Source: a candidate division WOR-3 bacterium (GTDB lineage: Bacteria; Hydrothermota; Hydrothermia; LBFQ01). Taken from it: a stretch of DNA of 64,000 nucleotides. The notes below the pieces were generated by a model. That model was not told where the DNA came from. It saw only the letters and a list, made by a program, of their open reading frames with translations, and did not search any database. Every line of letters begins with the position of its first letter. Position 1 is the first letter of the stretch. Made by a program: the position numbers and the translations under genes. Positions 10,519 to 14,800 of this stretch are shown in pieces. The stretch covers positions 3,036-67,035 of the forward strand of contig JALUCS010000083.1 of the NCBI GenBank assembly GCA_027050205.1, read 5' to 3'.

Positions 10519-11565
10519 ATGAAGAGGTTCAGGTACCTGTGGCCCGTCCTCATCCTCCTCGTGGTGATCCTGTACTTCGTTTGGAGGAGCGTAGGGAGGG
10601 GCAGGCCCGGAGGTGTCCGGGAGGAAACGCCCAAGGCGGAGAACAGACCCGTTGAGATATTCTTCACCCGCTCGGACGACAACCCCGAAAGGGCGTTGGT
10701 CTCCTTCATAAACTCGGCCAAGAGGTACGTTCACGTCGCCATATTTGAGTTGGAGTTGGAGAGTGTCGTAAAGGCCCTGATTGATGCCAAGGAGAGGGGG
10801 GTAGACGTAAAGGTAGTGATGGACGACAGGATGAAGCGGAAGTGGGCGGCCAGAAAGCTGAAGGCGGAGGGCATACCCGTCGTCTTTGACAACCGCCGTC
10901 CCTACATGCACAACAAGTTCGTAGTAGTTGATGGGAAGGCCGTATGGTCCGGTTCAATGAACTTCAAGGAGTCCTCCGTCTATCGCAACGATAACAACGC
11001 CTTCATCATCTTCTCCCCGCAGGTGGCGGAGAACTACGAGAGGGAGTTTCAGGAGATGTTTTCGCAGCACCTCTTCGGCCCGGAGTCCCCACGCAACACC
11101 CACTGCTGTTTCAAGGTGGCCAACATCTACCTTGAGAACTACTTCGCCCCGGAGGACAGCATAGCCCGGAGGATCGTTGATATACTGCGAAACGCCCGTA
11201 AGAGCGTCAGGTTCGCCGCCTTCTCCTTCACGGACGACGACATCGGCAAGGCGATGGTGGAGGCCAAGCGGAGGGGGGTGGACGTGGTCGGTGTGGTGGA
11301 GGCCCGTAGCGTTAGGAACAAGGGGTCGGAGTACAGGAAGCTTAGGAGGGCCGGCATACCGGTCTTCAAGGACGGGAACCCCTACATCCTCCACGACAAG
11401 TACATAATCGTGGATGATTCAATCGTAATAACGGGGTCCTACAACTTCTCGCGGTCGGCGAGGAAGAAGAACGACGAGAACGTGGTCATATTCTTCAAGA
11501 GGTGGATAGCCGAGGAGTACCTTCGGGACTTCGGACGTATCTTGAGAGAGGCGGGGGGTAGGTGA
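10519..11565 (+). CDS. membrane-anchored phospholipase D / Nuc-like family protein with two HKD motifs
   Basis: N-terminal TM helix (LWPVLILLVVILYFVW). HKD motif 1 is HNKFVVVDGKAVWSGSMNF and HKD motif 2 is HDKYIIVDDSIVITGSYNFSRSA. It lies directly next to the trailer end of the CRISPR array. Confidence 0.75.
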   Translation: MKRFRYLWPVLILLVVILYFVWRSVGRGRPGGVREETPKAENRPVEIFFTRSDDNPERALVSFINSAKRYVHVAIFELELESVVKALIDAKERGVDVKVVMDDRMKRKWAARKLKAEGIPVVFDNRRPYMHNKFVVVDGKAVWSGSMNFKESSVYRNDNNAFIIFSPQVAENYEREFQEMFSQHLFGPESPRNTHCCFKVANIYLENYFAPEDSIARRIVDILRNARKSVRFAAFSFTDDDIGKAMVEAKRRGVDVVGVVEARSVRNKGSEYRKLRRAGIPVFKDGNPYILHDKYIIVDDSIVITGSYNFSRSARKKNDENVVIFFKRWIAEEYLRDFGRILREAGGR

Positions 11566-11589
11566 GGGGTGCGTACGGCTATATGGATC

Positions 11590-13231
11590 ATTTCAATCCC
11601 TTATAGGTAGGCTGCAAACGACTGAGGAAGAACTTGATAAAATACTTGATATTCTCGTTTCAATCCCTTATAGGTAGGCTGCAAACAGCCGAGCGACTTT
11701 GGGGACATGCTACCACCTAGACTGTTTCAATCCCTTATAGGTAGGCTGCAAACTATATCGGCTTCAACAGAAGTCAAAACTCTTCCCCCAGTTTCAATCC
11801 CTTATAGGTAGGCTGCAAACAAGACGTATCCCTTGACAGAGGAAACGAAATAGTTGGGTTTCAATCCCTTATAGGTAGGCTGCAAACTACGAAGTCGTCT
11901 CCGCCCTCGGACTCCCCTTCCATAGTTTCAATCCCTTATAGGTAGGCTGCAAACAAAGGGTGGCGTCCTGACCGTTAGACGACGGGGGCATAGTTTCAAT
12001 CCCTTATAGGTAGGCTGCAAACTATGTAAGAAAAGAGAGGAAGTTTTAGAGCTGATACGGTTTCAATCCCTTATAGGTAGGCTGCAAACCTGAGCCATAT
12101 GAGGGGGAGGTCTATGATAACGTTCTGTTTCAATCCCTTATAGGTAGGCTGCAAACACAGACCCGGAGAAACCTCGTCCCCCAGCGTGGGGGGTTTCAAT
12201 CCCTTATAGGTAGGCTGCAAACCCTTACGCCCTCGGTGCCACGGAGGTGGCACGTATTAGTTTCAATCCCTTATAGGTAGGCTGCAAACCGTCCTCTCCG
12301 CCCTCGTTCGCCGCCTCGCTCTATCCGTTTCAATCCCTTATAGGTAGGCTGCAAACTCTCAAAACCTCCCTCGCCGAGTTCATCCCTGAATCTAGTTTCA
12401 ATCCCTTATAGGTAGGCTGCAAACTGACCAGTATAGAAAAGGCACTCCGGGACCTCCCCGAGTTTCAATCCCTTATAGGTAGGCTGCAAACTCAAAATGG
12501 GACACATATGTTTCTATATCAACCTTTTGTTTCAATCCCTTATAGGTAGGCTGCAAACTCTTTACCCTGTCCCCTACCCGCCCCGCCCCCCGGTTTAGTT
12601 TCAATCCCTTATAGGTAGGCTGCAAACGACCGTTTTTTTACGTCGGATACCGGAAACGGGTTGGTTTCAATCCCTTATAGGTAGGCTGCAAACCTGACGC
12701 TTTCGTCGTTCAGGCGATAGCACGAAATTAGTTTCAATCCCTTATAGGTAGGCTGCAAACCCGACTATCCTCTCTTTAGGGAGATTGAAGAATTTTGGTT
12801 TCAATCCCTTATAGGTAGGCTGCAAACCTACCTCATCCTTTCCCCCGACGAATTCTATCTTATCGGTTTCAATCCCTTATAGGTAGGCTGCAAACCAGCA
12901 ATCTGCCCGACTTTACGTCGGGACGAATATATGTTTCAATCCCTTATAGGTAGGCTGCAAACTTTGATTTCCTTTTCGTGTCCAAATACAATATTAGCTG
13001 TTTCAATCCCTTATAGGTAGGCTGCAAACTCATAGGAGCCGCTATCTGGTCAGCGTGGAGAGGGTAGTTTCAATCCCTTATAGGTAGGCTGCAAACAACA
13101 ATAGTTATCATCTAATATCCCTACTTTCGGATTGGTTTCAATCCCTTATAGGTAGGCTGCAAACTCCCCTCCGTTCTCCTCTCCCTCATTCGGGAGAGGG
13201 CGTTTCAATCCCTTATAGGTAGGCTGCAAAC
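11590..13231 (-). CRISPR. CRISPR array with 25 copies of a 30-bp repeat and 24 spacers of about 36-38 bp; crRNA is read on the minus strand
   Basis: The + strand repeat is GTTTCAATCCCTTATAGGTAGGCTGCAAAC. Its reverse complement ends ...ATTGAAAC, matching the 8-nt 5' handle of type I-B repeats. The repeat at 11590 is degenerate (A for G), as expected for the leader-distal end. Confidence 0.97.
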
Positions 13232-13480
13232 CCGTCTCCCATCCCTCTCCACAGGCTCAATTCTCATGCGAGTCTACCGGGTATTATAAGGGCGGGAAAA
13301 TAAAGATGGAGGCTCGTAAACCTCCAATCCTGCAGAAACCCCGGGAGGTTTGCGAAGTGGATGTAGATGCCCATCAGTATTGAGGAAACGGCCTTTTAAT
13401 ACGTTTGAACGATTGTTCAAGGACCCCGTGTAAGTTGAAATTTTCCGGAGGTTTGCGAAGTTGCTTTGTGGTACAAAGTA
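13232..13480 (-). promoter_or_regulatory. Putative CRISPR leader, between the last repeat and the direct-repeat-flanked insertion
   Basis: It adjoins the non-degenerate end of the array on the cas2 side. The minus strand carries TATAAT (reverse complement of gggtattataaggg at about 13298). An internal duplicated motif CCGGGAGGTTTGCGAAGT occurs at about 13333 and 13446. Confidence 0.5.
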
Positions 13481-14200
13481 GTCTTCGGTGAGGTTCAACA
13501 CTCACAGCCACATAGTGTCCCACCGTCGGGGCTTCTGTGGTCGCAGGCTAAACGGTTCAGGTGTAGAATAGAGCCTATGTTGATAGTTCAGAGGTGGGAA
13601 GTTGAAAGTGGAGTGCTTAGTCCCTCTTCAAAGACCCGGCCTTTACTCTATCAGGGGAAGGCACTGTACAGAGCCTTTCTAAGTCTGGCCCGGTCCTTTT
13701 TAAGAGAGCCGAGCGGCTGGTGGTTGAGGAGGAACGTAAGCTCGTTAATAGCGTTGAAGACGGCTTACTCTTATTTACTCTCCGCCCTTGAGGAAGCAGA
13801 TGCTACACCCACGCCGAAGACCGAGGCGGACGACCCCCTGATTACTAAGGTCATCAAGCTGGATACTGCCGTAAAGAGGAAAGGTCTGTTGGAGTTCGCC
13901 CTCAAAGCCGGGCTTGAGGAAGAGTTCTGGAAGGAGCTGGAGGAGACTACTGCGATCGTCAGTTTCCTTCTGAACGTACTTCTGGCCATAAAGGGGGGGA
14001 GGGTAAAAACCTCACAGAAGATCTACAAACGGGTCAGAAGGTTGTTGAGAAGGTATCTCAACCGTCTGGAGGATTTATGGCTGGATGTGGATATGTTGAG
14101 GTATATGGTGGGCGATAGGGATACGCAACTCGTTGATATTGATGAGGTGGAAGGGGAGATAGAGAAGATTTTGGAGGAGCATGGATCTAAAAGCCACTAA
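13466..14200 (+). CDS. hypothetical protein, candidate partner or antitoxin of the downstream RelE/ParE-like toxin; true start probably internal
   Basis: The ORF overlaps the RelE-like gene by 20 nt, the usual antitoxin-toxin arrangement. The C-terminal ~150 aa look protein-like (acidic, helical, ...LEDLWLDVDMLRYMVGDRDTQLVDIDEVEGEIEKILEEHG) with no motif I recognise. The N-terminal ~40 aa overlap the direct repeat and look non-coding. Confidence 0.4.
   Translation: MWYKVVFGEVQHSQPHSVPPSGLLWSQAKRFRCRIEPMLIVQRWEVESGVLSPSSKTRPLLYQGKALYRAFLSLARSFLREPSGWWLRRNVSSLIALKTAYSYLLSALEEADATPTPKTEADDPLITKVIKLDTAVKRKGLLEFALKAGLEEEFWKELEETTAIVSFLLNVLLAIKGGRVKTSQKIYKRVRRLLRRYLNRLEDLWLDVDMLRYMVGDRDTQLVDIDEVEGEIEKILEEHGSKSH
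13489..13522 (+). repeat. 34-bp direct repeat, left copy (GAGGTTCAACACTCACAGCCACATAGTGTCCCAC)
   Basis: Matches the copy at 14493-14526 at 32 of 34 positions. The two copies bracket the RelE-like module. Confidence 0.85.
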
Positions 14201-14468
14201 GAAGTTTCATAAATCCCTACGGAAATTACCTCCAGACGTCTTAAGGAGGCTCCAGAGAACCATCAACCTGATCAAGATCTCAAGGGATGTTGATGACCTC
14301 TCCCGAAGGGTGGGACCGGGGAACATCAAACCTCTGAGGGCTAAGGGTGGCAAGTTCTACAGTATCCGGCTTGGACTCCACTGGCAACTTGGGATTGAGG
14401 TCAGGGGAAACGTAGTCGTTCTGATGAAGATAGGAAGCAGGGAGAACTTCTATAGGGACTTCCCTTGA
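14181..14468 (+). CDS. RelE/ParE-family type II toxin (mRNA interferase)
   Basis: A 95-aa product with an N-terminal KKFHKSLRKLPPDVLRRLQRTI helix and a C-terminal YSIRLGLHWQLGIEVRGNVVVLMKIGSRENFY. The C-terminus follows the pattern Y-R-[LI]R-GDYR-IY-...V-VL-IGHR--Y. Confidence 0.65.
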   Translation: MDLKATKKFHKSLRKLPPDVLRRLQRTINLIKISRDVDDLSRRVGPGNIKPLRAKGGKFYSIRLGLHWQLGIEVRGNVVVLMKIGSRENFYRDFP

Positions 14469-14492
14469 ATAGGACCCCAACGGCAAAGTTGT

Positions 14493-14526
14493 CTGCAACG
14501 AGGTTCCACACCCACAGCCACATAGT
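14493..14526 (+). repeat. 34-bp direct repeat, right copy (GAGGTTCCACACCCACAGCCACATAGTGTCCCAC)
   Basis: See the left copy. It ends 8 bp before the cas2 stop codon. Confidence 0.85.
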
Positions 14527-14533
14527 GTCCCAC

Positions 14534-14800
14534 TCAAAAGATGAAGTCCTCGCTGCTCGGAGCCTCACGCCCGAGGTTTTCGCGGGCGTAGTACGACTTA
14601 CTCCTGAACTTGTATATCACGACGGAGTCCATACTGTCGTCTATGATACCGTTGATCTCGGCCTTCAGGAGGCGAAATTCTGCCTTTGTTATCTCCCCTT
14701 CAAAGACCGAATTCTGTACCCACGTGAGGTACTTCTTGCACACCTTATGCACCTTCTGGACCCGCTCCGTAGCGACGTCATAAACGAGAATGATGAACAT
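14534..14800 (-). CDS. cas2: CRISPR-associated endoribonuclease Cas2
   Basis: An 88-aa product, MFIILVYDVATERVQKVHKVCKKYLTWVQNSVFEGEI... (canonical Cas2 N-terminus). Confidence 0.9.
   Translation of the reverse strand: MFIILVYDVATERVQKVHKVCKKYLTWVQNSVFEGEITKAEFRLLKAEINGIIDDSMDSVVIYKFRSKSYYARENLGREAPSSEDFIF

Follow-up and report, generated by a model that had tools for sequence, protein, structure and literature searches.

What is a gene pair of the toxin-antitoxin (TA) kind doing between the leader of a clustered regularly interspaced short palindromic repeat (CRISPR) array and the last gene of the adjoining cas operon, and how did it come to be bracketed there by two nearly identical direct repeats (DRs)? 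The locus that raises this question lies in a 64,000-nucleotide (nt) stretch of DNA from a candidate division WOR-3 bacterium (GTDB lineage Hydrothermota; GenBank assembly GCA_027050205.1, contig JALUCS010000083.1, positions 3,036 to 67,035 of the forward strand). We call this stretch the window, and coordinates without a locus name refer to it. A preliminary description, made from the sequence alone, had noted the pair and had suggested that it could stabilize the cas locus, regulate adaptation, or be the remnant of an insertion into the leader. Our results lead us to a reading that we regard as probable rather than secure, namely, that the pair forms a mobile cassette of the type II TA or abortive-infection kind, which has a new antitoxin family and is lodged at the leader-distal boundary.

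A two-gene cassette with a RelE-type toxin

Only two genes lie between the DRs, both on the plus strand and both contained in the interval between the leader and the cas2 stop codon. The first (13577 to 14200) encodes a protein of 207 amino acids (aa), the presumed antitoxin, which we refer to as the partner. The second (14181 to 14468) encodes a RelE-type toxin of 95 aa with an isoelectric point (pI) of 11.2. As the preliminary description had it, the genes overlap by 20 nt (14181 to 14200) and no integrase or transposase open reading frame (ORF) accompanies them between the repeats. The same adjacent and co-directional pair, with its 20-nt overlap, is kept in five lineages: that of the window, those of two related loci (L003 and L005; L numbers denote the loci compared with the window), a phage (L013 to L015), and the more distant locus L023. 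Genes that are adjacent, co-directional, overlapping, and co-inherited are what is expected of a type II TA system. No second cassette copy or paralog was found elsewhere in the window.

Profile matches and the predicted fold assign the 95-aa protein to the RelE branch of the RelE/ParE superfamily, in keeping with the fold first proposed for it. It matches PHROG 1213, a RelE-like toxin family classed as a "moron" family, with an E value of 3.5e-8, and a profile built from the five members of the toxin family matches the M. jannaschii RelE3 structure (3BPQ in the PDB) over its full length with an E value of 6.3e-8. The C-terminal RENFYRDFP of the window toxin aligns with RKSIYDYFP of RelE3, sharing Y..FP. 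An AlphaFold2 model (predicted local distance difference test score [pLDDT] of 87) has strands (E) and helices (H) in the order E-H-H-H-E-E-E-E, and when it was compared with the PDB by Foldseek, the top 40 matches were RelE, YafQ, HigB, and YoeB proteins, with template modeling (TM) scores of 0.6 to 0.72 and a probability of 1.0; ParE proper ranked lower. Five residues (R63, K83, R87, Y91, and R92) are invariant among the five family members, and ratios of nonsynonymous to synonymous substitution (dN/dS) of 0.21 to 0.49 reveal purifying selection on the toxin.

Two substitutions in chromosomal toxins deserve mention. The window toxin carries Gln69 (codon 14385 to 14387) where all four homologs have Arg, and the L003 toxin has Pro70 within a predicted beta-strand along with several other unique changes. 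Judged from these alignments, both may be attenuating. A stronger interpretation, that R69Q inactivates the window toxin, was dropped since RelE3 of M. jannaschii has Ser at the aligned position. A PADLOC match of the toxin to CARF_RelE (E value of 0.041) was too weak to be used.

The partner is less readily placed. Its ORF can be opened at a TTG at 13466, which would give 244 aa, but we set the start at the ATG at 13577 because the resulting N terminus, ML.vQ.WEVE, is conserved in all full-length homologs, including that of the phage. The preliminary description of an acidic helical protein was half correct: the model contains eight helices (pLDDT of 82, predicted TM score of 0.76), while the overall pI is 8.7, with 33 Lys and Arg against 31 Asp and Glu residues. 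Acidic parts are confined to the middle third and the C-terminal 35 residues (173 to 207, pI of 4.5), whereas the first third and the helix at 141 to 172 are strongly basic. Modeled alone, the C terminus has low pLDDT. Such an acidic, low-confidence tail is compatible with a toxin-binding region, and its charge complements that of the very basic toxin. The partner was also said to be unplaceable and much larger than RelB, Phd, or DinJ, and so it proved. Neither Pfam, NCBIfam, nor PADLOC assigned it a domain, and among solved structures nothing resembled it beyond generic helical bundles. Its relatives are few and none is named. A word-seeded search recovered 12 proteins, an exhaustive HMMER search of 1.84 billion sequences recovered 8 representatives, and iteration with remote members brought the family to 15, that is, about 15 among 5.8 billion proteins. 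The partner evolves under purifying selection (dN/dS of 0.13 to 0.22).

Ahead of the pair is a short promoter-like box (GTAGAATA, 13563 to 13570, plus strand) that contains a -10-like TAGAAT at 13564 to 13569 and lies 7 nt before the partner ATG. The box is invariant in the WOR-3, phage, and L023 copies, at 6 to 7 nt from the ATG. From this spacing, the cassette would be transcribed as a leaderless or nearly leaderless mRNA. A consensus promoter scan gave no full sigma-70 site for the cassette.

Direct repeats as a duplicated piece of the leader

The 34-bp repeats are identical at 32 of 34 positions, as reported originally, and two matches of this kind occurred in none of 100 dinucleotide shuffles. 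Their positions had been misplaced by 1 and 7 nt and are 13490 to 13523 and 14500 to 14533. Ungapped homology extends over 50 nt at 86% identity, from 13474 to 13523 (DR1) and from 14484 to 14533 (DR2), both on the plus strand. DR1 constitutes the leader-distal boundary. DR2 begins 15 nt past the toxin stop codon, and its last base adjoins the cas2 stop codon.

Comparison with related leaders suggests where the repeats came from. In an alignment of four cassette-bearing loci and one leader without the cassette (L019), a 21-nt core in DR1 (CACAGCCACATAGTGTCCCAC, 13503 to 13523, plus strand; consensus CACAGCC(A/C)CATAGTGTCCCAC) forms a near-invariant island at the far end of the leader, between variable flanks. 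The L019 leader has a single core, followed directly by an unrelated nuoG-like gene. L019 lies on a second contig of the metagenome-assembled genome (MAG) that also contains L003, and its leader end, 80 nt from the end of the contig, differs from the L003 leader at many positions. The single-copy empty site predicted in the preliminary description thus exists as a paralogous, not an orthologous, site; exact-core scans of genome and metagenome collections for an orthologous cas2-DR-leader site without the cassette returned the same lineage only. The right edge of the core (...GTCCCAC) is joined sharply to four different sequences (the cassette promoter, cas2, a phospholipase D [PLD] family gene, and nuoG), which fits a defined recombination boundary.

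Outside the WOR-3 lineage the picture is different. With up to 4 mismatches allowed, the core is absent from the cassettes of the phage, L016, and L023, and homology among all cassettes sets in about 22 nt before the ATG, at the GTAGAATA box, and ends at the toxin stop codon. The DRs are therefore host leader sequence that has been duplicated around the cassette and was not brought in by it. Repeats at both ends and a one-copy unoccupied site, the latter by way of the paralogous L019, are what an att-type integration would leave behind. The corresponding recombinase was not found between the repeats, nor a donor core in the phage, L023, or L016. An insertion remnant at the leader, as suggested earlier, would be neither recent nor private, since the cassette and both DRs are conserved there in several related WOR-3 MAGs. 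The core, for its part, belongs to the conserved elements of the leader-distal end.

The two copies appear to have exchanged sequence. In L002, the same A-to-C change is found in both, and the middle part of DR1 in the window has the DR2-type version, whereas L003, L005, and L019 have another. On the strength of these sequence patterns, gene conversion between the copies is indicated.

Several other identities for the repeats were considered and rejected. The DRs fold no better than shuffled sequences on either strand (z scores of -0.3 to +1.8), which rules out a structured RNA, a terminator, or an attC-like hairpin, and with the last of these an integron gene cassette. They bear no likeness to the CRISPR repeat in sequence. 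An att site of the tRNA type is ruled out by distance, the nearest tRNAs being at 2925 and 41732; an Rfam scan returned only CRISPR repeats and two tRNAs. On the trailer side of the arrays, no core-like sequence that could serve as the second end of a mobile unit was found.

Related loci and decay of the cassette

Within the WOR-3 lineage, the surroundings of the cassette vary. L001 and L002 have the arrangement of the window, with cas2 after DR2, and in L002 a deletion of ~125 nt has taken the toxin N terminus. In L003 and L004, array, leader, DR, partner, toxin, and DR are followed by a PLD/NucT-like gene. In the window, the orthologous gene is to the left of the array, whereas L003 and L007 have it on the right-hand side of the cassette. 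In L005 and L006, a single repeat precedes the leader, DR, partner, toxin, and DR, after which come a promoter, a partial second partner gene (79% identical), and cas6; the block from cas2 to cas8 is gone. What is left in L007 to L012 and L017 is a wreck, consisting of half a CRISPR repeat, a truncated leader, a partner gene without promoter and N terminus, an internally deleted toxin gene, an intact DR2, and the PLD gene. Because the gene beyond DR2 varies (cas2, PLD, or cas6) while the leader is constant, it is the leader and array, not cas2, that the cassette accompanies.

Where the cassette decays, the toxin goes first, to judge from these sequences, as in typical chromosomal TA systems: it is inactivated by deletion in L002 and in L007 to L012 and L017, in which partner sequence persists. 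The proposal that the cassette stabilizes the cas locus is weakened by these findings, since the cas operon has been lost beside an intact cassette and the toxin has been destroyed in two lineages. For a role in regulating adaptation, we found no support.

Some further features of these loci were recorded. The unit made up of array, leader, DR, cassette, and DR (10519 to 13523 in the window, compared with L002, L003, L005, and L007) has sharp borders and occurs in at least 4 chromosomal contexts among close MAGs, with PLD, dnaK, a 199-aa ORF, RNase T, or a RelE-like gene as left neighbors and cas2, PLD, or cas6 on the right. This points to a mobile array unit or a rearrangement hot spot; misassembly of MAGs is possible, yet the junctions recur in independent assemblies. 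In L005 (5719 to 7560), all that remains of the CRISPR-cas locus is one repeat, a leader that has lost 80 nt internally, the cassette, the partial second cassette, and cas6. About 70 nt from this remnant repeat is a remote paralogous pair (L005, 4698 to 5649) that encodes a 222-aa partner-like protein (profile E value of 4e-10) and a 101-aa RelE/ParE-like toxin. The remote pair also occurs at L024 (6001 to 6950), beside the same glycosyltransferase gene and without CRISPR; the toxin appears to be frameshifted there.

A phage copy and a second CRISPR context

A homologous cassette is carried by a contractile-tailed phage (L013 to L015). Its identity is 62 to 69%, with the toxin at 62% and the partner at 63%, and it sits as an opposite-strand insert between an amidase (lysis) gene and baseplate genes. 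Tail sheath, baseplate hub, tape measure, and head morphogenesis proteins were recognized with PHROGs. Synonymous divergence (dS) between the phage and host copies is saturated, so that any exchange between them is old.

A spacer in L003 (5256 to 5292) matches the baseplate-hub gene of this phage at 35 of 37 positions (L013, 7265 to 7301; also L014 and L015), and the 5' flank of the protospacer on the CRISPR RNA (crRNA)-sense strand is CTG. The L003 array is a sister of the array in the window, with the same leader and cassette. The match places the phage in contact with the WOR-3 host lineage.

L023 presents the cassette next to a different array, the repeat of which is GTCCTTAATCTACCTTGTGGAATTTGAAC. 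Beginning 69 nt past the last repeat, the cassette runs in the same direction as the array, and degenerate repeats come after it before the end of the contig. Its partner is 82% identical to a protein from a "Thermotogae bacterium" MAG and 48% identical to the partner in the window. The degenerate repeats, three in number and closely spaced (L023, 5984 to 6090), lie 3' of the cassette at the contig end, and one of them, TAATCTACCTATGAGGGATTGAAAC, looks closer to the WOR-3-type repeat than to the local one. As the contig stops at this point, the cassette may belong to a single array or may separate two.

Other family members are found on short contigs, beside uvrB in L016 and beside an aldehyde dehydrogenase gene in L022. 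IMG/VR, INPHARED, and PLSDB contained no further homologs. So far, all members of the partner family come from hydrothermal lineages of thermophiles and from one phage of these lineages.

Proposed mechanism and its weak points

We propose that the GTAGAATA promoter would drive a probably leaderless bicistronic mRNA, the first product of which is the all-helical 207-aa member of a new and very rare family. The second product, presumably coupled to it in translation through the 20-nt overlap, would be an archaeal-type RelE, a ribosome-dependent mRNA endonuclease. The acidic C-terminal helices of the partner (approximately residues 173 to 207) would bind and neutralize the very basic toxin, and its basic helices may bind DNA for autoregulation. 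Once synthesis of the partner stopped, through phage-induced shut-off or loss of the locus, freed toxin would arrest translation. As for the 50-nt DRs, they would represent a duplicated leader-distal piece, with the cassette having entered at this point in an ancestor of the WOR-3 lineage and then having been inherited with leader and array. We regard the cassette as mobile because, from promoter box to stop codon, it occurs in a phage, near uvrB or an aldehyde dehydrogenase gene, and, in another organism, next to a different array. Insertion at the leader end is argued for by the core, which belongs to the conserved leader, is single in L019 where the cassette is lacking, and is absent in the phage and L023.

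An argument can be made against this reading on several grounds. Toxicity and neutralization, on which it depends, are things we infer; so are the leaderless mRNA, the way in which the cassette was inserted, and any advantage that CRISPR would gain. The general domain databases are lukewarm about the toxin: Pfam PF15781 (ParE-like_toxin) matches with an E value of 1.8e-5 and 25 bits, below its gathering score of 28, PF05015 (HigB-like) reaches 22 bits against a gathering score of 27, and NCBIfam gives no match. The partner departs from type II antitoxins in having no recognizable DNA-binding domain (ribbon-helix-helix [RHH], helix-turn-helix [HTH], Phd/YefM, or AbrB) and no known antitoxin fold, and at 2 to 3 times the size of RelB-type antitoxins it may have a role other than, or beyond, neutralization. 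The duplication of 34 to 50 nt would have to have arisen with no recombinase at hand. In L005, the second DR runs on into a diverged, partial second cassette. As far as can be read from the sequence, this tandem arrangement shows that unequal crossing-over or iterated insertion also happened, and DR2 could have arisen by tandem duplication or unequal crossing-over, not by a single insertion. Finally, adjacency to CRISPR in two unrelated repeat families (the clade of the window and L023) exceeds what would be expected of purely selfish random insertion. A functional tie between the cassette and CRISPR is possible.

Alternative explanations

The explanations that follow and the one we prefer are not mutually exclusive. 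If the link to CRISPR is functional, the pair would be an accessory of the system, either as a guard of array and leader that fires upon loss, silencing, or attack of the locus or through an action of the partner on the leader or the divergent array promoter. We judge this improbable on present evidence, though we keep it as an alternative. In each of four chromosomal contexts, the cassette is found with leader and array, and its neighbor on the far side changes among cas2, PLD, and cas6; decay of the array is accompanied by decay of the cassette; and a cassette with 48 to 51% identity adjoins the last repeat of the unrelated array in L023, with degenerate repeats after it. The promoters of the module and leader stand back to back, transcripts running on past the cas operon would be antisense to the pair, and there are precedents in the type I TA systems beside I-B arrays of C. 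difficile (PMC5961336), in CreTA/CrePA (PMC9458426, PMC12737573), and in the Cas13a-HicAB pair (PMC13448076). Yet, position and orientation are not constant, the cassette being upstream of the leader and antisense in WOR-3 and at the trailer end and sense in L023, and members of the family occur in the phage and beside uvrB or the aldehyde dehydrogenase gene with no CRISPR in view. Independent events of array adjacency number only two or three, and loss of the cas operon beside an intact cassette in L003 and L005 means that cas loss was not prevented. RNA control of the CreTA/CrePA kind is ruled out by the lack of both degenerate repeats and spacer complementarity: the best repeat-like match in 13232 to 14620 is 17 of 30, equal to the shuffle background, with none of at least 19 of 30 outside the array near the locus, and the longest exact match of the 24 spacers to 13232 to 14540 is 11 nt, none being in the promoter. 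No cr-like RNA was found. A bolder version goes further, and we consider it unlikely. It holds that the pair is a new type of array guard, a protein TA system recruited to array boundaries (leader-distal in WOR-3, trailer or intra-array in the Thermotogae-bin MAG) that penalizes loss or silencing of the array; that targeted phages carry a neutralizing copy; and that the partner is a new antitoxin fold that reads the state of CRISPR, for example by means of the 21-nt core.

Others concern the repeats or the phage. The DRs could be functional binding sites, operators for the partner-toxin complex or for a leader-binding factor, which are kept by selection and are not scars of insertion. The near-perfect retention of the core in both copies and at all loci amid a variable stretch, the location of DR1 approximately 40 to 60 nt upstream of the -10-like box, and the survival of the core in the cassette-less leader of L019, where it may serve the leader itself, all speak for this, and the change shared by both copies in L002 suggests concerted evolution or co-selection. 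But gene conversion accounts for that change equally well, the core has neither the dyad symmetry of a TA operator nor a stable fold, and DR2 is unchanged where the cassette is a pseudogene. Moreover, the phage and L023 cassettes retain the promoter box without a DR, which implies that the cassette does not need one, and we rate the operator explanation as rather improbable. We are about equally doubtful that the cassette derives from the phage and mainly serves it, by stabilizing a prophage, excluding superinfection, or supplying an antitoxin that disarms the host copy, with the chromosomal copy as a leftover. This would accommodate the opposite-strand moron cassette at 62 to 69% identity, the L003 spacer against the baseplate-hub gene, and the best PHROG match being a moron family of RelE-like toxins. 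It is harder to reconcile with host copies that are vertically conserved in the lineage under purifying selection and have no other phage genes or ends beside them, with the age of the exchange implied by saturated dS, and with the lack of homologs in INPHARED, IMG/VR, and PLSDB; transfer could have gone either way. Least of all, and with almost no credence, we entertain integration by the CRISPR adaptation machinery or another ruler-type integrase, which would have inserted an oversized spacer-like segment with repeat-style duplication. The duplicated segment (a 34-nt block, 50 nt in all) is near the 30 nt of the repeat and is in the leader of an adaptation-competent locus with cas1, cas2, and cas4, and the L023 cassette is bracketed by CRISPR repeats. 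However, the duplicated sequence is unlike the repeat and differs from it in length, the site is leader-distal instead of at the leader-repeat junction, and the insert is about 30 times the length of a spacer. We know of no precedent for kilobase integration by Cas1-Cas2.

Relation to known systems

The module would work like a RelBE-type TA system, but its partner is outside the RelB, DinJ, and Phd families. The toxin is basic, has 95 aa, and shares the fold of archaeal RelE proteins (M. jannaschii RelE3, 3BPQ; P. horikoshii aRelE, 1WMI), being related to the former from end to end. As in RelBE, the upstream gene overlaps, the pair is co-inherited, and the toxin decays first in some lineages. 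Where RelBE antitoxins have ~60 to 90 aa, the partner has 207, is all helical, lacks RHH, Phd/YefM, HTH, and AbrB domains, and belongs to a family that is exceedingly small.

TA modules beside CRISPR loci are already known. In C. difficile, type I TA modules adjoin type I-B arrays (PMC5961336), and the cassette resembles them in its recurrent co-location with I-B arrays, in having copies in phages or prophages, and in the idea that immunity is coupled to dormancy. The C. difficile modules combine small membrane-peptide toxins with antitoxins that are antisense RNAs; in our locus, toxin and partner are proteins, the toxin would be an RNase, and the site is leader-distal with a flanking duplication. 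CreTA and CrePA are CRISPR-regulated TA guards (PMC9458426, PMC8501985, PMC12737573, bioRxiv 10.1101/2024.01.05.574328) and a HicAB system has been found coupled with Cas13a (PMC13448076). With CreTA/CrePA, the cassette shares a toxin module nested in a type I CRISPR-cas locus, the loss or derepression of which would penalize lost CRISPR function. CreTA, however, needs a degenerate mini-array (creA) to guide Cascade to the toxin promoter, whereas our locus has neither degenerate repeat nor spacer complementarity and the antidote would be a protein. TA morons and stabilizing cassettes of phages, integrons, and genomic islands are similar in being self-contained from promoter to stop codon, in occupying phage and several chromosomal contexts, and in being bracketed by DRs in the chromosome without a recombinase of their own. 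They differ in that the DRs described here are not attC-like and are absent from the phage copy, with no integrase between or beside them. What is new, then, is the family of the partner, the lodging of the cassette at the far end of the leader together with duplication of a leader segment, and the presence of a homolog in a phage that a sister array targets.

Should the 207-aa protein be the antidote, it represents a new and structurally unplaced family of antitoxins for RelE-type toxins. The locus is also a compact test case for whether selection holds protein TA modules at CRISPR arrays, be it for addiction, as a backup by abortive infection, or as phage counter-defense, or whether they merely accumulate there. 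In the absence of a functional link, the pair would be just another chromosomal TA cassette of a defense island.

The CRISPR-cas locus and neighboring genes

The array (11590 to 13231, minus strand) consists of 25 repeats of 30 nt (GTTTCAATCCCTTATAGGTAGGCTGCAAAC on the plus strand) and 24 spacers of 36 to 39 nt. Its assignment to type I-B comes from NCBIfam matches to Cas8b/Csh1, Cas7/Csh2, and Cas5b. The array ends on the left in a degenerate terminal repeat at 11590, and its repeat, when reverse complemented, terminates in ATTGAAAC; these two features place the leader to the right of the array and the crRNA sense on the minus strand. On that strand, cas2 (14534 to 14800) is the last gene of a cas8b-cas7-cas5-cas3-cas4-cas1-cas2 operon and converges on the toxin gene; cas6 is on the plus strand, to the right of the array and alongside cas8b to cas2.

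The leader (13232 to 13523, minus strand), the far end of which is DR1, has other recurrent elements. A TATAAT at 13283 to 13288 on the minus strand is kept across the aligned leaders and, assigned by eye, would be the leader promoter. Directly upstream of it is a terminator-like hairpin with a T-run (13326 to 13297, minus strand; the hairpin itself, 13326 to 13307). Since the minus strand has no other terminator candidate from cas2 to the array, transcription continuing past the cas operon would be antisense to the entire cassette. The leader also has two copies of a 15-mer, GGAGGTTTGCGAAGT (13344 to 13358 and 13447 to 13461), with two matches in 0 of 100 shuffles; it is kept in related leaders, and the first copy could pair with AAACCTCC of the upstream hairpin region.

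Away from the cassette, L002 contains a 391-aa ORF upstream of dnaK (787 to 1462) with tandem repeats of 33, 66, and 99 nt and coiled-coil-like character, which is unrelated to the cassette. At the trailer end of the array in the window, the PLD-family gene (10519 to 11565) is 24 nt from the last repeat. It has sub-threshold NCBIfam matches to the nuclease NucT and to DrmC, the PLD protein of DISARM, and by these resemblances may encode a defense-related nuclease rather than a lipid enzyme.

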